A stretch of 64,000 bases of DNA from Oscillospiraceae bacterium (GCA_021199795.1 JAJQHJ010000034.1:27270-91269); one strand, 5' to 3'; positions 29,521 to 36,122 are shown, counted from the first letter of the stretch. Notes: a model not told the origin generated them from the letters alone. Translations and numbers: made by a program.

Positions 29521-30117
29521 ATGGCAGTAAATAAGGAGCCTATACTCAAAAAGTGTGCAGCTCTCGGAATCAGCCCGATGGTTATGGGTGTTGGCAAGGA
29601 AACCAAGCGCAACCCCAAGGCCAATGTAAGAAAGAAAGAATCAGAATACGCTAAGCAGCTCAAGGAAAAGCAGAAGCTCAAGTTTATCTATGGCGTTCTT
29701 GAAAAGCAGTTCAGACATATCTATGAAAGAGCTGAGAAGATGGAAGGTCAGGCAGGTGCTAACCTTATAACACTTCTCGAAGAGAGACTTGACAATGTCG
29801 TCTTCAGAATGGGTCTTGCAACCACCAGACGTGAAGCAAGACAGCTCGTTTCCCACGGTCATTTCAGTGTAAATGGCTCAAGAGTCGACATTCCTTCATA
29901 CAGAGTTAAGGTCGGCGACGTTATTTCCCTGAGAGAGAACTCCAAGAAGAGCGAAAAGTTCAAGGAAATTGTCGAGGATACCGACAAGAGACTTGTTCCC
30001 TCATGGCTTGACAAGGACAAGGAAAACCTCACCGCAACTGTAGTCAGAGTTCCCGTCAAGGAAGATCTCGACTATGAGGTTGAGGAGCATATGATTGTCG
30101 AGTTGTACTCCAAATAA
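29521..30117 (+). CDS. rpsD: 30S ribosomal protein S4
   Basis: 198 aa, LEERLDNVVFRMGLATTRREARQLVSHGHFSVNG. Confidence 0.96.
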   Translation: MAVNKEPILKKCAALGISPMVMGVGKETKRNPKANVRKKESEYAKQLKEKQKLKFIYGVLEKQFRHIYERAEKMEGQAGANLITLLEERLDNVVFRMGLATTRREARQLVSHGHFSVNGSRVDIPSYRVKVGDVISLRENSKKSEKFKEIVEDTDKRLVPSWLDKDKENLTATVVRVPVKEDLDYEVEEHMIVELYSK

Positions 30118-30296
30118 TCGGTTCGAGATTATACATTGGATACCCTGTTCTGCTTGTGCGAATGTGTTGCGTATTATGCAACAGTTCGCATGATGGCAGT
30201 ATCAGCGGGAGGGCAATAGATTTCGGTTGCGCTTCATGGGAGGACTTCTCTCAGAATCCACGCAGGCGGAATCACCGATAGTAAATGGAGGCTATA

Positions 30297-31259
30297 ATGC
30301 TAGAAAAAATCGAGAAGCCGGATATAAATATAGTCGATCTCAAGAGCAACGGCACCTACGGCAAGTTTGTCCTTGAACCGTTGGAGCGTGGCTATGGTAC
30401 GACTATCGGCAACAGTCTTAGACGTGTATTGCTTTCATCGCTTCCCGGCGTCGCCGTCACCTCAGTCAAGATAGACGGTGTACAGCACGAATTTTCCACA
30501 GTTCCTGGAGTCAAGGAGGATGTCGCAGAGATTATCCTTAACTTAAAGGGACTAACAGCCAAGCTTTACTGCGACGGTCCGAAGACCGTTTATGTTGAAG
30601 CCGAGGGCGAGCGCGAGGTAACAGCGGGCGACATCAAGACCGATTCTGAGGTTGAGATTTTGGTTCCCGACATGCACATCGCAACTCTTGGCGAGGGCGC
30701 AAAGCTGTATATGGAGATAACTCTCGACAGAGGCAGAGGCTACGTTTCAGCCGAAAAGAACAAGACCTATATGGTCAACGCCCCCATCGGCGTAATCGCA
30801 GTAGACAGTATTTACACACCGGTTCTCAAGGTCAACTACAGCGTTGAGAACACCCGTGTAGGACAGATAACCGACTTTGATAAGCTCACATTAGAGGTGT
30901 GGACCGACGGCGTCATTTCCGCAAAGGAAGCCGTTTCTATGGCAGCCAAACTCCTCAACGAGCATCTTAATCTGTTCGTCAACCTCTCGGAGGAGACAAT
31001 AGTTGACGAGATCATGACAGAGAAAGAAAACAAGACAAAGGACAAGGTTCTTGAGATGACCATTGAGGAACTTGACTTGTCGGTACGTTCATTCAACTGC
31101 CTGAAGAGAGCAGGAATCAACACTGTCAGCGATCTGGCTGAGAAGACTGAGGAAGAAATGATGAAGGTCAGAAACCTCGGTAAGAAGTCGTTTGAGGAAG
31201 TCAAGACAAGGCTCGCTTCACTCGGCGTCGAAATGAACTCAAGCAACAACGAGGAATAA
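30297..31259 (+). CDS. rpoA: DNA-directed RNA polymerase subunit alpha
   Basis: Start moved to ATG 30297 (MLEKIEKP), behind [23 protein letters not shown]...[17 protein letters not shown]. Confidence 0.96.
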
Positions 31260-31280
31260 CAAAGTAAGGAGTGAAATTCA

Positions 31281-31619
31281 ATGCCGGCAAGAAAATTGGG
31301 CAGAACCACTGACCAGAGACGGGCAATGCTCAGAGCTATGGTAACATTTCTGCTTGAAAACGGTAAGATAGAGACCACAGTAACCAGAGCCAAGGAAGTT
31401 CAGAGCGTAGCTGAGAAGATGATTACTCTCGGCAAGGCTGGAGACCTCCACTCGAAGAGACAGATCTATGCATACATCACAAAAGAGGATGTTGCAAGAA
31501 AGCTGATTAACGAGATAGCTCCGAAGTATGCCGACCGCAACGGCGGCTACACCAGAATTATCAAGACCGGTCCCAGACGCGGCGACGCTGCTGAGATGGC
31601 TATAATTCAGTTGGTCTGA
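31281..31619 (+). CDS. rplQ: 50S ribosomal protein L17
   Basis: 112 aa, [18 protein letters not shown]...GGYTRI. Confidence 0.96.
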
Positions 31620-31721: not shown

Positions 31722-32309
31722 TTACTGCGAAAGGCTTTCTGCCGGGGGCAGATTTCCAAGAGCTTTCATATACTCCATGACACCCCCAGACACCAATCTC
31801 TGCATCAGCTCGCTGATTTCTTCGGGGCTGATGTCTTTATTATTTTCATGCCAACGCTCCAGGAGTCCGAACATGGCAGAGTTGACGAATGCGATAAGGT
31901 AGTCGAAATTCTCAGAGTCCGGACGGACGGGGATGTACTTCGAAGCGAGAGGAATCAGCTCGGCTCTTACCCTCGACAGGAAGCTCGAGTCGCCATTCGG
32001 ACCCAATAGAATATAAATTTCCTCGTTCATCGCGGAAAAGACCATCCGGAAGAATTCCGTTGGTGGTTTTTCATCCGATATGGATGTCTGAGCCACTTTT
32101 TTGACGTCCTCTATCAGCTTATTCTCGACATAGGACAATAAATCGTCGGTGTCCAAAAAGTATTCATAGAATGTGCTGCGGTTATATCCGGCAAGCCTGG
32201 TGAGCTCGCTAACAGCAATCTTTGAGACCGGCTTTTCCTTTGCCAGAGCCCAAAAGGCATCGACAAACTTTTGCCTTGTTCTATCAGTGATTTCCGGTTG
32301 TTTTTTCAT
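31722..32309 (-). CDS. TetR/AcrR-family transcriptional repressor
   Basis: 195 aa. N-terminal HTH RQKFVDAFWALAKEKPVSKIAVSELTRLAGYNRSTFYEYF. Divergent from the operon at 32463. Confidence 0.85.
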   Translation of the reverse strand: MKKQPEITDRTRQKFVDAFWALAKEKPVSKIAVSELTRLAGYNRSTFYEYFLDTDDLLSYVENKLIEDVKKVAQTSISDEKPPTEFFRMVFSAMNEEIYILLGPNGDSSFLSRVRAELIPLASKYIPVRPDSENFDYLIAFVNSAMFGLLERWHENNKDISPEEISELMQRLVSGGVMEYMKALGNLPPAESLSQ

Positions 32310-32327: not shown

Positions 32328-32420
32328 AATTATCCGACAGTTTCAAAGAAATTGGGGGTTGATAATGTCTCCGAACTGAGTATAATATATATTATACAAC
32401 AGGCTGTTGGATAAAGTCAA
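32328..32420. promoter_or_regulatory. divergent promoter/operator module, copy A
   Basis: Plus strand: half-site AATTATCCGACA (32328-32339), -35 TTGATA (32359-32364), a 16-nt spacer, -10 TATAAT (32381-32386), and palindrome TACAACA-GGC-TGTTGGA (32395-32411). Minus strand: TTGACT (rc of 32415-32420), an 18-nt spacer containing the palindrome, then TATAAT (rc of 32391-32396), facing tetR. Confidence 0.6.
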
Positions 32421-32462
32421 GACAATTCTTCCGTATTTTTTTCAGAGAGGAGGGCGAGTGTG

Positions 32463-32783
32463 ATGAGCGTTCGTATCCTGAAAGAATGGTTCAAGTGGCG
32501 TAATGACTGGGATTCCCTGTGTAATCGCTGCGGAAAGTGCTGTTACACCCGCTCTGTCGGCTCTGATGGCAAGGTTATTATTCACTATAACAACCCCTGC
32601 GAATATCTTGACACAAAGACAAACCTGTGCCGTGTATATGATGAGCGATTCAAGAAGTGCAACCACTGTGGGAAACTGACTTTATATACGGCACTGTTCA
32701 ATACCACGCTGCCGGAGGATTGCCCGTATGTGACAACTTTCCGGCTGTGGGAATGTGGTCACGACCACAACGAAAACGATTAG
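32463..32783 (+). CDS. small Cys-rich CxxCxxCC (YkgJ/UPF0153-type) putative Fe-S or Zn protein
   Basis: CNRCGKCC motif plus further Cys pairs (CEYL...CRVY...CNHCG). GGAGGG sits 9 nt upstream of ATG 32463. Confidence 0.65.
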   Translation: MSVRILKEWFKWRNDWDSLCNRCGKCCYTRSVGSDGKVIIHYNNPCEYLDTKTNLCRVYDERFKKCNHCGKLTLYTALFNTTLPEDCPYVTTFRLWECGHDHNEND

Positions 32784-32794
32784 GAGGCACAATT

Positions 32795-33487
32795 ATGGCA
32801 ACTTACGAACCAACACAGGAAGCAATGAAAAAGGCAATGTATGAAAGGCACACCGTCCGCAAGTACACGGGCGACAAGCTCCCGCAGGACATTGTTGAAA
32901 AGCTCAACGAAAGAATAGAGGAGAACAACAAAAAATATGCTCTGAACATCCAGCTTGTTACCGACAACAAGGAGGCTATGCCCGGAATCATGGCTGCAAC
33001 CATGTCTAAAAACGTCCTGAACTACATGATTCTTGCCGGTTCCGACAAGATGTCGACCGACGAAACGCTTGGATATGTCAGTGCCGACCTCATGCTTTAT
33101 GCTCAGACGTTGGGCTTAAACACCTGGTGGATAGGCGGAATGTACAGCAAGAAGAACGCAAGGAAGAATTCCAGCTCTCCCGAGGGCTCGAAGATTATAG
33201 GTGTTGTTGCCGTCGGCTACGGTATGGAGCAGGGCGTTCCGCATAAGTCGAAGCCCATGGATGAGGTTTCCTCCTATGATGGCGAAGCTCCCGATTGGTT
33301 CAAGGCTGGAGTTGAAGCAGCACTCTTAGCTCCCACAGGTATGAACCGTCAGGAATTCACCGTAAAGGGCTCCGGCAACGAGGTTACTATGACCGTTCCC
33401 GATGCATCTTTCGCAAAAGCCGACCTTGGAATCTGCAAGTACCACTTTGAACTCGGAGCGGGAAAGGAAAACTTCACCTGGAAGTAA
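32795..33487 (+). CDS. nitroreductase-family flavoprotein
   Basis: Track ORF 32657 trimmed to ATG 32795, behind TAGGAGG. ERHTVRKYTGDKLPQDIVEKL... matches the nitroreductase N-terminus. Confidence 0.75.
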   Translation: MATYEPTQEAMKKAMYERHTVRKYTGDKLPQDIVEKLNERIEENNKKYALNIQLVTDNKEAMPGIMAATMSKNVLNYMILAGSDKMSTDETLGYVSADLMLYAQTLGLNTWWIGGMYSKKNARKNSSSPEGSKIIGVVAVGYGMEQGVPHKSKPMDEVSSYDGEAPDWFKAGVEAALLAPTGMNRQEFTVKGSGNEVTMTVPDASFAKADLGICKYHFELGAGKENFTWK

Positions 33488-33598
33488 TTCAGTCATCAGT
33501 ACCTCCACAGTCATATAGATAGCGCACCGCCCACCGAAGAAGCAACGATTTGGTGGGCTGGTGCTTGTAACCACGCCTGAAGATATGGAGATGATTTT

Positions 33599-34348
33599 AT
33601 GAGATATGAGTCAAGTCAGTTGAGAGAAAACATGGACAAGAGCAGTAGGACAGTCGCGGTGACAGGTGCCGGAATTTCATATCTGTATGGTATGAGGCGG
33701 CTTAAGCAGAGTGTAGGACTGATGAATTCAAGGCAGGTTCTTTCACCCTCCTTTGTGAGAAGCAATCCGGATGAATTCTATAGAATTGTCAAAACCTCGT
33801 TTTTGGATGCGACATTCGTGAAGGGTCCAAGCAAGGTTCACAAGCAGCTAGCGACTCTTGAGAAATGTGGCTTGCTTTATGGGATAGTAACCCAGAACAT
33901 GGACTGTCTGCACACTGTAGCCGGTTCAAAGAATGTTGTCGAGTTCCAGGGAAGCTTTGGAGACAATATCTGCCTGAACTGCGGCACAAGATATACTGAT
34001 TATAAAATCTGGAATCAGGGACATGCGCCGGTCTGCGAAAAGTGCGGCTCACCCATTATGCCGACCACTTTCTGCCGGGACAACAAACTCAGCGAACAGA
34101 TTTCAAAAGAGAGCATGAAAAAAGCACAAGAAATGATTTCCGAAGCGGACTTAGTGATAATTATCGGCACAACCGGGTTCAGGAGCGACGAATATCTCAA
34201 AAAGATGCGCAAGGGAACCACGCTTGTCCAGATAAATCCGTCGGAAACTCCTCTTGACTCGGTTGCCGACTGGAATATCCGTGCAGATGCAGGAGAGGTT
34301 CTGGATGAAGTAATGAATGGATGGGAGAAGTGCGAAGATGTTCTCTAA
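33599..34348 (+). CDS. SIR2-family protein A, catalytic His replaced by Gln
   Basis: VTGAGIS, TQNMDCLHTVAGS, VVEFQGSF (Gln where the canonical motif has ELHG), and zinc ribbon CLNCG...CEKCG. Lacks GIPDFR and FGE. Confidence 0.85.
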   Translation: MRYESSQLRENMDKSSRTVAVTGAGISYLYGMRRLKQSVGLMNSRQVLSPSFVRSNPDEFYRIVKTSFLDATFVKGPSKVHKQLATLEKCGLLYGIVTQNMDCLHTVAGSKNVVEFQGSFGDNICLNCGTRYTDYKIWNQGHAPVCEKCGSPIMPTTFCRDNKLSEQISKESMKKAQEMISEADLVIIIGTTGFRSDEYLKKMRKGTTLVQINPSETPLDSVADWNIRADAGEVLDEVMNGWEKCEDVL

Positions 34349-35051
34349 ATCGGGCTTCGACGACAAGATACAGAGATTTTCAGAATATGTTGACAACAGC
34401 AACCACATAGTTGCAATCACCGGCGCAGGGATTTCTATTTCCGGCGGAGGAGTGAGCTACAGTCAGCTTTCCCGCACCATCAGACCGGGCGGCAGCTTTG
34501 AGAGCGAATCATTCCTTAAGTCCTATGTCAAAGCCATGCATCACTACAAGCCGAGCCTGAGCCATTATGCCTTGGCGGATCTGGAACGTGAGGGCAAGCT
34601 CATAGGGATTATCACGACGAACGAGGACTGTATGCACACCATTGCGGGTTCGCAAAACGTTGCCGAAATTCAGGGAAGCTTCCAGATCAACCGCTGTAAG
34701 GATTGCGGCAGGCACTATGACGGCTACGAGATATGGAACCAGGATGAGCTTCCGAAGTGCGATTCCTGCGGAGGGACAATTCTCCCGTGGGAGCTCTACA
34801 GCCACATCGGACTCTGGAACGACGGCGTCCGGGATGCACAGAAGTGGATTTCGGATGCAGACCTTATAATTGTAATCGGCACCAACGGCTACTATGGTGG
34901 TGCCTATTGGAGCTACCGGAGAAGCGATGCCGTGATTGTTCAGATAAATCCGGGTCACACAGCCTTTGACCGGGTTGCGGATCTGAATATTCGCGAAGAA
35001 TGCGACGAGGTGTTCAAAGAACTGAAAGAAAGGCGGAGTAGAAATGCCTGA
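34338..35051 (+). CDS. SIR2-family protein B (paralogue of A), catalytic His replaced by Gln
   Basis: Start moved to ATG 34338, overlapping the stop of A by 11 nt. ITGAGIS, TTNEDCMHTIAGS, VAEIQGSF, CKDCG...CDSCG. Confidence 0.85.
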   Translation: MFSKSGFDDKIQRFSEYVDNSNHIVAITGAGISISGGGVSYSQLSRTIRPGGSFESESFLKSYVKAMHHYKPSLSHYALADLEREGKLIGIITTNEDCMHTIAGSQNVAEIQGSFQINRCKDCGRHYDGYEIWNQDELPKCDSCGGTILPWELYSHIGLWNDGVRDAQKWISDADLIIVIGTNGYYGGAYWSYRRSDAVIVQINPGHTAFDRVADLNIREECDEVFKELKERRSRNA

Positions 35052-36021
35052 TGAGAAGATGCAAGAGCTTGCCGAGAAGATGCGTGAAGCCGAAAACAAG
35101 GGCTTGACTGAAGAAGAGATCAAGGCTCGCGACGAAGAAAGAGAGAAGCGCAGGCTCGAAAACATCCGTATTCTTGAGGATACACTTGATATTCTTGAAA
35201 AAGGATGCTATCAAAAGGGCAGCTCTGAAATTAGTCTCGGATTCTCAATGGATGAGATGAAAGAGGCGAGAGTTTATCTCCCGGAAGATATCAGGGCTAT
35301 CGAGAAGTCAGCACCTGTTGAAAGGTATTCTACAGACCGGGATATAAGCTGGATTTTCAGCTGCGAAAATGAGGACGCACTCGTTCTTGCAAGCAGAAGA
35401 TACATCGAAATGAAAAATGCCGGGGACTTCTCGCCGAAAGTCATGGTTCTGAACCTTGCCAGTGCCACCGAGCCGGGAGGTCACACCCGCAAAGGCGCAG
35501 GTGCACAGGAGGAAGACTTGTGTAGGAGGTCGTCTTTGCTTATGTCTCTTGAGAGCGATAACGCAAAGAAGTATTACGACTATAACAACTCATCCAAGAC
35601 ACATATGGGCTCTGATGGAATCGTCATGTCACACAACGTCGAGGTTATAAAAAACCGAAGCTGCGAAACCCTTGTGAAGCCGTTTGAGATAACCGTTATG
35701 ACCTGCTCGGCACCTATGATACGGATGGGGCTTGAGGGAATGTCGCAGGACGAGTATGAAGAAATGCTCGGAACACGTATTCGTGGAATGCTGACGGTCG
35801 CTGCAACTGAAAAATATCGCCATTTAATCTTAGGCGCATTCGGTTGCGGAGTGTATGGAAATGACGCTAAAACCGTTGCAAAGCTGTTCCATGAAGCGAT
35901 TACCGCCTTTTCCTATGCCGGAAAGCCAGCAGAAGCACTCTTTGATTCGATTGACTTCGCCGTCATGTGCAAGCCAGAAAAGGATTATAATTACAATGAA
36001 TTTTGCAAGTATTTTTCGTGA
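35044..36021 (+). CDS. bacterial-type poly/mono(ADP-ribose) glycohydrolase-like protein (DUF2263 / TIGR02452 family)
   Basis: ATG 35044 overlaps the stop of SIR2-B (ATGCCTGA). PARG-type signature LNLASATEPGGHTRKGAGAQEEDLCRRSSL (GG-X8-QEE). Charged coiled N-terminus. Confidence 0.75.
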   Translation: MPDEKMQELAEKMREAENKGLTEEEIKARDEEREKRRLENIRILEDTLDILEKGCYQKGSSEISLGFSMDEMKEARVYLPEDIRAIEKSAPVERYSTDRDISWIFSCENEDALVLASRRYIEMKNAGDFSPKVMVLNLASATEPGGHTRKGAGAQEEDLCRRSSLLMSLESDNAKKYYDYNNSSKTHMGSDGIVMSHNVEVIKNRSCETLVKPFEITVMTCSAPMIRMGLEGMSQDEYEEMLGTRIRGMLTVAATEKYRHLILGAFGCGVYGNDAKTVAKLFHEAITAFSYAGKPAEALFDSIDFAVMCKPEKDYNYNEFCKYFS

Positions 36022-36035
36022 TTAAACCGTAGCCG

Positions 36036-36122
36036 AATTATCCGACACTCCCCAAAAAATTGAGGGTTGACACCCGATTTTTGCTGAGTATAATACTAAT
36101 CATACAACAGGTTGTTGGATAA
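36036..36122. promoter_or_regulatory. promoter/operator module, copy B (duplicate of 32328-32420)
   Basis: AATTATCCGACA (36036-36047), TTGACA (36067-36072), a 16-nt spacer, TATAAT (36089-36094), and TACAACA-GGT-TGTTGGA (36103-36119). All boxes keep the same spacing as copy A. Confidence 0.6.

Follow-up and report, generated by a model that had tools for sequence, protein, structure and literature searches.

A conserved cassette of His-less sirtuins and a PARG-type hydrolase in Clostridia, a candidate writer/eraser module for ADP-ribosylation

We analyzed a 64,000-nucleotide stretch of DNA from an Oscillospiraceae bacterium (GCA_021199795.1, JAJQHJ010000034.1:27270-91269), referred to here as the window, in which positions 33599 to 36021 carry three overlapping genes on the plus strand. 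The first two encode sirtuins, SIR2-A and SIR2-B, with Gln at the position of the catalytic His, and the third encodes a PARG-type hydrolase. The sirtuins and the PARG-type hydrolase are a conserved unit that recurs in dozens of Clostridia, apparently from the gut. We give about an even chance to the interpretation that this cassette is a writer/eraser module for ADP-ribosylation that resembles, by convergence, the system of the class M sirtuins (SirTM) and that is tied to a redox or xenobiotic response; every enzymatic activity, target and physiological role discussed below is one that we infer.

Clustering of the sirtuins from this and related loci resolved families A and B and, rarely, a fourth paralogue, D, which is found after PARG or downstream of the other sirtuins; family B divides into B1, with the motif TTNVD, and B2, with TTNED. 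SIR2-A (33599-34348, 249 aa) is a family A protein with Gln117 in place of the His and is the core putative ADP-ribosyltransferase. SIR2-B (34338-35051, 237 aa; Gln112) belongs to subfamily B2, with the motifs TTNED and GTNGYYG. The third gene (35044-36021, 325 aa) encodes a microbial-type PARG (TIGR02452/DUF2263), a predicted macrodomain-fold hydrolase. The start codon of SIR2-B (ATG 34338) lies ahead of the SIR2-A stop codon (34346-34348) and that of the PARG gene (ATG 35044) ahead of the SIR2-B stop codon (35049-35051), giving overlaps of 11 nt and 8 nt; the trio is thus coupled by overlapping stops and starts, as a preliminary description of this DNA had claimed. An alternative ATG for SIR2-B lies at 34317. 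Direct reading of the sequence places a GGAG-type ribosome-binding site before each of the three starts. Opposite SIR2-B, on the minus strand, an open reading frame of 218 aa runs from 34509 to 35165, and similar frames (clusters c12, c14 and c15) occur at related loci; these antisense frames are most likely artefacts of codon composition and not genes.

Profile searches, a check that the preliminary description had proposed, matched both of the first two proteins to the SIR2 family (PF02146, cut-off 24), with E = 2e-23 and 83.7 bits for SIR2-A and E = 7.5e-19 and 68.8 bits for SIR2-B, and matched the third protein to PF10021 and TIGR02452. All the motifs quoted in that description were located. 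The Rossmann motif reads VTGAGIS in SIR2-A and ITGAGIS in SIR2-B, the TQN.D..H..AGS block is represented by TQNMDCLHTVAGS and TTNEDCMHTIAGS, respectively, and the Cx2C...Cx2C zinc ribbon by CLNC...CEKC and CKDC...CDSC; the PARG signature of the third protein is EPGGHTRKGAGAQEE. The best matches of the sirtuins among PDB sequences, determined with HMMER, were to Sir2Af1 (1ici, 1m2k; E = 2e-31 for SIR2-A and 4e-25 for SIR2-B), and Sir2Tm was matched as well.

The catalytic-motif region is VVEFQGSF in SIR2-A and VAEIQGSF in SIR2-B. In the HMMER alignments the Gln of VVEFQGS and of VAEIQGS lies opposite the His of the Sir2Af1 sequence VIHLHGS, and posterior confidence is maximal at the flanking AGSxNV and GS anchors. 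Because the anchors are fully supported on either side, the Gln takes the place of the general-base His, and the alignments to Sir2Af1 thereby support the assignment made earlier for both sirtuins; it is based on high-confidence sequence alignments together with fold-level agreement, not on a residue-level superposition of coordinates. A recognizable motif is present in 116 of the 120 closest homologues of SIR2-A, with Gln in 114 of the 116 and Met in the other 2. Gln112 is invariant in the SIR2-B alignment, and conservation of the Gln reaches at least 90% in all paralogue groups, B and D included. The NAD pocket and the zinc site are kept in families A, B and D, as judged from GAGIS, T(Q/T)NxD, GT, QINP and the four Cys residues.

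The GIPDFR and FGE motifs had also been described as lost from both sirtuins, and we could identify what replaces them. GIPxFR has become GMRRLK in SIR2-A and GGVSYS in SIR2-B (family consensus GmrRLK and GGGvTY), and FGE has become FCRDN and LYSHIGLW (family-wide, a variable F... and LYSHIglW). The GTSxxVxP motif is replaced by GTTGFRS in SIR2-A and GTNGYYG in SIR2-B, in a loop about 6 residues shorter than that of Sir2Af1. Both halves of the beta-staple that holds the acyl-peptide, the FGE loop and GTSxxVxP, are therefore remodelled or shortened in A and B. Against the CobB/deacylase equivalog models both proteins score below half of the cut-offs, the best of the NCBIfam deacylase equivalogs (NF040867, cut-off 320) giving 146.2 bits for SIR2-A and 117.2 bits for SIR2-B. 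The AlphaFold2 models have predicted local distance difference test scores of 87.7 for SIR2-A and 78.1 for SIR2-B, and their best Foldseek matches are Sir2Tm, Sir2Af1, Sir2Af2, PfSir2A and SIRT5; the matches to Sir2Tm and Sir2Af have template modelling scores of about 0.7 and E = 1e-18 to 1e-20. A zinc-ribbon surface, DY-x-IWNQ, is conserved between the paralogues. Mean identity is 77% within family A and 72% within family B, which points to purifying selection.

The third protein bears a PARG-type signature, as had been noted, and passes both family cut-offs, with E = 2.8e-26 for PF10021 (93.1 bits; cut-off 23.5) and E = 9.5e-47 for TIGR02452 (159.7 bits; cut-off 50), the latter over residues 43-320 of 325. 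Its sole MacroD-type match is to NF001662, at E = 0.0025 and 17.7 bits against a cut-off of 215. By sequence it matches the solved structures of DrPARG from D. radiodurans (5zdf, 8e-26) and TcPARG from T. curvata (3sig, 3e-23). In the catalytic loop PGGHTRKGAGAQEE aligns to PGGGFLGGAQAQEE of DrPARG, and the PGGG...QEEDLCR loop of the solved PARGs is covered by PGGHTRKGAGAQEEDLCRR; in the diphosphate loop GAFGCGVYGND aligns to GAWGCGVFRND. With a complete catalytic signature and a diphosphate-binding loop that both align to solved PARGs, the protein looks catalytically competent as far as its sequence can tell. The GG-X8-QEE signature, with GG here and not GGG, is present in all 62 of the 62 family members from related loci, and the surrounding consensus PGG-xTRxGA[SG]AQEEDLCRR is at least 90% conserved. 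The protein is thus like the known microbial PARGs (3SIG, 5ZDF) in its catalytic and diphosphate loops, but unlike them it is paired with sirtuins and not with a PARP, and it has an additional charged N-terminal helix of about 45 residues that is conserved in the family.

Conservation of the cassette was surveyed with one genome per GTDB species. This yielded 126 relatives of SIR2-A, and we examined the best 80 loci, all of them from metagenome-assembled genomes (MAGs) of Clostridia. The order A, B (sometimes with a second B) and PARG, all on the same strand, is kept at nearly every locus that is not cut by a contig end. Where at least 3.5 kb of sequence was available downstream (57 loci), PARG follows A in the same orientation, no more than 3.5 kb away, in 50, and it is found elsewhere in the locus in 3 more, so that an arrangement confined to the window, which would have spoken against a functional trio, is not what we find. 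From A up to PARG there are two sirtuins in 32 loci, three in 20 and one in 5. Three-sirtuin loci are always A-B1-B2, and two-sirtuin loci are A-B1 (32) or A-B2 (14), the window being of the A-B2 type. At two loci (L021 and L029) A is followed directly by PARG with no B, which makes A plus PARG the minimal core; the idea of an obligate A:B heterodimer is weakened by these loci and by those with three or four paralogues. Some genomes have 2-3 copies of the cassette. Three of the loci (L020, L035 and L068) come from one MAG (JAJBUL), and in L068 the cassette is tandemly duplicated on one contig. At L022, L038 and L067 the B or PARG genes are split, perhaps because they are pseudogenes or because of errors in assembly. 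The MAG accession series JAJP, JAJQ and JAJB, together with two 'Zagget' MAGs (L038 and L061), account for nearly all loci, Zagget being the name given in one paper to koala faecal metagenome bins; the family seems to be restricted in habitat.

The preliminary description had suggested that SirTMs share the loss of the catalytic His, and the literature agrees: SirTM has QG in place of HG (PMC4518038). In Rack et al. (2015, PMC4518038) class M, known from S. pyogenes and S. aureus, is marked by this QG and a catalytic Arg192 in contact with the Gln, by the motifs Cx3C, GVGx[NT]TP, T[ST]N[VA]D and GAGxSAx2Gx2Y, and by a genetic link to a Zn-MacroD, with or without GcvH-L and LplA2, a Cx(3)C first half of the zinc site occurring in class M only and Cx2C in the other sirtuin classes (PMC4518038). 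The window proteins share the QG, in EFQGS of SIR2-A and EIQGS of SIR2-B. The first zinc halves, CLNC and CKDC, are both Cx2C and not Cx3C, and at the position of GVGx[NT]TP the proteins have GTTGFRS and GTNGYYG. Neither T[ST]N[VA]D nor GAGxSAx(2)Gx(2)Y is found in SIR2-A, which has TQNMD and GAGISYLYGMRR, or in SIR2-B, which has TTNED and GAGISISGGGVSY with its Tyr one residue out of register. TTNVD, which fits T[ST]N[VA]D, is found only in B1 and D paralogues outside the window. Family A has an invariant Arg195 within GTTGFRS, and in family B the equivalent loops show no conserved Arg. SpySirTM (5A3A to 5A3C) is absent from the top 60 HMMER and the top 50 Foldseek matches in the PDB. Membership of class M was rejected on these motifs and on the rankings of PDB sequences and structures. 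The parallel to SirTM drawn in the preliminary description accordingly stands for the shared loss of the His, and not for kinship: the window proteins belong to a separate His-less lineage that is nearest to Sir2Tm and Sir2Af, and their Gln is convergent with, or at least independent of, that of SirTM.

An exhaustive HMMER search with SIR2-A against 1.84 billion representative sequences gave 5018 matches, only 9 of them below 1e-30. In the catalytic column of the top 150 matches His is found 127 times, Gln 15, Trp 5, Phe 2 and Asn once. A neighbor-joining tree of the 127 nearest full-length representatives, a simple-distance, midpoint-rooted tree without SirTM sequences that is indicative only, places A, B and three distant Gln-types in an exclusive clade, and the addition of five Trp-types makes an exclusive His-less clade of 13 members. 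These sequences suggest a single origin of the Gln in this lineage, separate from that in class M. The Trp-for-His sister group consists of P0248 (L087-L090), P0262, P0333, P0373 and P0375, with motifs such as VADIWHS and VFEYWGD; in P0248 the arrangement of a TetR gene, the Trp-sirtuin gene and a small GNAT gene is conserved. Among the distant members, L083 has a MarR gene followed by overlapping genes for a TM1586 nitroreductase and a Gln-sirtuin, and others adjoin Flavodoxin_4 and ABC transporter genes or an NAD_binding_10 gene; small redox proteins are thus found here as well. The distant Gln-types P0250 and P0308 lie on contigs too short to show a context, and P0242 stands alone at a contig edge.

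Set beside known systems, the cassette has a mixed character. Like SirTM, the window sirtuins have the sirtuin fold, QG for HG, the nicotinamide-ribose loop with its Asn and Asp, and a structural zinc site, and like the SirTM system they are operon-coupled to a macrodomain-fold ADP-ribose hydrolase and linked to flavin oxidoreductases and, putatively, to a stress response. Unlike SirTM, their best matches are Sir2Tm and Sir2Af, at 28-30% identity; the partner is a PARG and not a Zn-MacroD, GcvH-L and LplA2 are lacking, loci typically carry 2-4 paralogous sirtuins, and the neighbors are nitroreductases and not OYE plus LLM. Compared with Sir2Tm, Sir2Af1, Sir2Af2 and CobB (class U/III), they are closest in sequence (1e-25 to 1e-31) and in fold and share size, domain layout, GAGxS, TQNxD and Cx2C...Cx2C, but they differ in having Gln for His, in the loss or remodelling of GIPxFR, FGE and GTSxxVxP, and in forming an exclusive His-less clade. 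The logic of a writer plus a hydrolase is also that of DraT/DraG, whose target is a redox enzyme, and of DarT/DarG; the DraT and DarT writers have unrelated ART folds, DraG is of the ARH fold and DarG an ALC1-like macrodomain, and unlike DarT/DarG the present cassette gives no evidence of toxin-antitoxin behavior.

We characterized the neighbors of the cassette by clustering the flanking open reading frames and scanning cluster representatives against Pfam. In 49 of the 80 loci the cassette is immediately preceded by a classic nitroreductase gene (PF00881) in the same orientation; a gene for a TM1586-type nitroreductase is present in 22, one for a YcgN-like Cys-cluster protein in 18, a divergent Rrf2 regulator gene in 27 and a TetR gene in 19. 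In the 53 loci with room upstream, a nitroreductase-fold gene is found within 2.5 kb in 36 (TM1586 type in 17), Rrf2 in 18, YcgN in 13 and TetR in 12. In 19 loci (among them L013, L018, L024, L033, L034, L036, L042-L044, L048, L061, L073 and L080) PARG is followed, on the same strand, by genes for an AMP-binding, adenylate-forming enzyme of about 506 aa, for a GNAT acetyltransferase and for a putative esterase. The window is without a classic nitroreductase, Rrf2 or the ligase, GNAT and esterase genes. No GcvH or LplA was found among the conserved neighbors in the clustered flanks of the 80 loci, in line with the earlier remark that GcvH-L and LplA2 are lacking; the hydrolase is, as also remarked there, of PARG and not MacroD type. 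Synteny with TetR and ABC transporter genes is limited to the closest relatives of the window (L001-L009) and a few others. We therefore rejected TetR plus efflux, proposed earlier, as the defining context: it holds for L001-L009, the regulators elsewhere are Rrf2 or MarR, and the ABC genes have a promoter-like site of their own. The other part of that proposal, the nitroreductase link, stands, nitroreductase-fold proteins being robust partners, unlike TetR and efflux.

In a writer/eraser module of the kind proposed, the Gln-sirtuins would bind NAD+ in an intact sirtuin pocket with release of nicotinamide, and would then pass the ADP-ribose on to an acceptor and, like SirTM, would not deacylate lysine; transfer is favored over deacylation because the general base and the acyl-lysine peptide loops are missing. 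The PARG-fold hydrolase would take off or trim the modification, freeing ADP-ribose. Family A would be the core writer, since some loci have no sirtuin but A beside PARG; the part of B1, B2 and D would be that of accessory writers or specificity subunits. The cassette would be co-expressed with flavin nitroreductase-fold enzymes and the small Cys-cluster protein, controlled by regulators of the redox or xenobiotic kind, namely TetR in the window and Rrf2 or MarR at other loci. Given these flavoenzyme neighbors and regulators, it probably modulates a redox or xenobiotic stress response, and the neighboring flavoproteins, including the TM1586 type, or the YcgN-like protein are the leading candidates for its target. 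Precedent for such a module comes from SirTM, which has QG for HG and shows robust ADP-ribosyltransferase activity with no deacylase activity (PMC4518038). The SirTM Gln touches the ribose 3'-OH, the Q137H mutant is inactive, and N118 and Q137 are essential (PMC4518038). SirTM operons also encode a macrodomain eraser and the flavoenzymes OYE and LLM (PMC4518038, PMC11490716), the role of OYE and LLM in these operons being still unexplained (PMC11490716).

Several points weigh against an ADP-ribosylation module. The catalytic Arg192 of SirTM has no clear counterpart in A or B by sequence, and the Gln could equally mark a pseudoenzyme or a sensor of NAD or ADP-ribose. The AlphaFold2 model of SIR2-B is only moderate in quality, and is weakest right after the QG and in the former FGE loop. 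Characterized PARGs cleave ribose-ribose O-glycosidic bonds and leave the protein-proximal ADP-ribose on (PMC7050489), so that PARG as an eraser of mono-ADP-ribosylation is an assumption, and a mono-ADP-ribose writer/eraser pair would need a new PARG specificity, a non-protein acceptor or an oligomeric product. The association with nitroreductases is frequent and not universal. Finally, the surveyed loci come mostly from a few MAG accession series and are not fully independent.

The limits of PARG chemistry bear directly on the main alternative, in which the acceptor is not a protein. Here the Gln-sirtuins would ADP-ribosylate hydroxyls of xenobiotics, metabolites or nucleotides, for detoxification or signalling, and PARG would cleave the resulting O-glycosidic (acetal) bond. 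The bond that PARGs cleave is an O-glycosidic ether and not a protein ester (PMC7050489), and the peptide-binding loops of the sirtuins are lost. Many neighbors are of detoxification type (two kinds of nitroreductase, the esterase, GNAT, SDR, ABC efflux and TetR, MarR or Rrf2), the paralogue expansion and multi-copy genomes resemble detoxification families diversified by substrate, and the two Zagget MAGs come from koala, with its diet rich in plant toxins. We nevertheless consider this alternative unlikely. We know of no precedent for small-molecule ADP-ribosylation by a sirtuin, an eraser has no obvious use in detoxification, and the conserved DY-x-IWNQ surface of the zinc ribbon may suit a macromolecular partner better.

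Loss of a key catalytic residue is also what would be expected of pseudoenzymes, that is, of NAD+- or ADP-ribose-binding subunits that sense NAD status and control the flavoenzymes or PARG. The presence of several paralogues with strongly conserved surfaces is compatible with such a role, and the same clade has a Trp-for-His lineage in which the bulky Trp may be better suited to binding or blocking. A sensor role nonetheless seems rather unlikely to us: the Asn and Asp of the nicotinamide-ribose site and the Gln are near-invariant, as in active SirTM, and the conserved pairing with an intact hydrolase implies a covalent product.

Alternatively, the sirtuins could still be deacylases or NAD consumers that make O-acyl-ADP-ribose or ADP-ribose, with PARG serving in metabolite clean-up. 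Pairing a GNAT with an adenylate-forming enzyme, as found after the cassette in the 19 loci mentioned above, recalls the Pat/CobB/Acs acetylation circuit, but neither gene, nor the esterase gene, is present in the window. The macrodomains MacroD and TARG1 hydrolyze O-acetyl-ADP-ribose (PMC7050489), and a link through this metabolite was the original rationale for sirtuin-macrodomain operons (PMC7050489; PMC4518038); the PARG class, however, is not among the listed O-acetyl-ADP-ribose hydrolases (PMC7050489). The general-base His is gone in every paralogue, SirTM, which shares the substitution, shows no deacylase activity and is dead as Q137H (PMC4518038), both peptide loops are remodelled, and the CobB equivalog scores stay below half of the cut-offs. 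We regard retained deacylation as quite unlikely.

A further variant would reconcile the writers with the known bond specificity of PARG. The sirtuins would build O-glycosidic ADP-ribose, either as short chains or on sugar or phenolic hydroxyls of a small molecule or nucleic acid, and PARG would be the cognate glycohydrolase; family A would act first, with B1, B2 and D lengthening the chain or widening the range of acceptors. This variant is improbable in our estimation. If it were true, the cassette would be a PARP-independent source of PARG substrates in bacteria, and would explain why many bacteria have TIGR02452 PARGs and no PARPs.

The known SIR2 NADases of defense systems keep the catalytic His, which counts against a defense role. 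That the sirtuin is an ADP-ribosylating or NAD-depleting toxin and PARG its antitoxin, on the logic by which DarTG combines a writer with a macrodomain-fold hydrolase (PMC8120803), appears very improbable despite the 2-3 copies in some genomes and the tandem duplication in L068, as PADLOC gave no system-level match (only a marginal AbiI match to SIR2-A, E = 0.0077, and none to SIR2-B or PARG), tblastn gave no close homologue on plasmids or phages, and the flanks hold housekeeping and detoxification genes with no integrases or defense islands.

A full-text literature search found no paper that places sirtuins with a DUF2263/TIGR02452 PARG in one operon, or with nitroreductases, in keeping with the preliminary description, which had not recognized the context as one described before. 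In public annotation these genes appear as 'hypothetical protein', 'NAD-dependent protein deacetylase' or 'TIGR02452 family protein'. A 2024 paper from the SirTM field still presents SirTMs as, apparently, the sole sirtuins whose activity is confined to ADP-ribosyl transfer, owing to a His-to-Gln exchange (PMC11490716). The present cassette is probably a second sirtuin-based system, of separate evolutionary origin, by which ADP-ribose is added and removed, and it looks like a second lineage with the His-to-Gln exchange, descended from Sir2Tm/Af-like ancestors and expanded into paralogue arrays. If A and B are ADP-ribosyltransferases, the exchange would be a general, convergent switch from deacylase to transferase. 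For bacterial TIGR02452 proteins in organisms with no evident PARP partner, the cassette would also point to a possible physiological role. Its nitroreductase neighbors parallel the link of SirTM to OYE and LLM and hint at a common logic that joins ADP-ribosylation to flavin and redox stress. Since all the components are small soluble proteins, standard NAD-labelling assays apply.

Directly upstream of the trio in the window, on the plus strand, lies the gene for a TM1586-type nitroreductase-fold protein (32792-33487; PF14512, 4.9e-63). Since CobB can stand in for CobT and the fold of BluB is that of a nitroreductase, a role in making the lower ligand of cobamides was considered. The idea was dropped, the TM1586 protein matching BluB only at E = 0.008 with 15.6 bits against 150, and this route would also need a pyrophosphatase, which PARG is not. 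The nitroreductase gene is preceded by that for a small YcgN-like protein with a CxxCxxCC Cys cluster (32460-32783, plus strand), a recurrent neighbor of the cassette; NCBIfam YcgN models match it with values up to 9.9e-18, under their cut-offs, and PF03692 at 2e-3 with 19.1 bits, under the Pfam gathering score of 23. A divergent gene for a TetR-family regulator (31722-32309, minus strand) matches PF14278 TetR_C_8 at 9.3e-11 and TetR_N at 2.6e-4.

A sigma-70-like promoter candidate (32359-32386, plus strand; TTGATA-16-TATAAT, 11 of 12 matches) lies before the ycgN-like gene and is possibly the start of a ycgN-nitroreductase-sirtuin-PARG transcript; no promoter-like site comparable to it was found in the 111-nt gap (33488-33598) before SIR2-A. 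A perfect sigma-70 promoter-like site (36067-36094, plus strand; TTGACA-16-TATAAT, 12 of 12) precedes the ABC transporter genes, which begin at 36122. Because they have this site of their own, the ABC genes are probably a separate transcription unit, which would set the downstream boundary of the sirtuin-PARG operon. The gap before SIR2-A contains a conserved long hairpin (33522-33566, plus strand) of 17 pairs, with a minimum free energy of -28.5 kcal/mol and z = -3.2. Its stem is nearly invariant in the window and in L001, L002, L004, L006, L007 and L008, with one compensatory pair, and the flanks vary. It has no clear U-tract and no match in Rfam at E up to 1; possible roles are those of a terminator, attenuator, processing site, element of the 5' untranslated region or protein operator.

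A search for carriage on mobile elements found none, tblastn against plasmids and phages giving no close homologue and, among the listed records, only canonical deacylase-like proteins of at most 37.5% identity. Look-alikes of rpsD, rpoA and rplQ, identified from translations by eye, occupy 29521-31619, directly upstream of the cassette region, and these adjoining housekeeping genes indicate that the cassette in the window is chromosomal.

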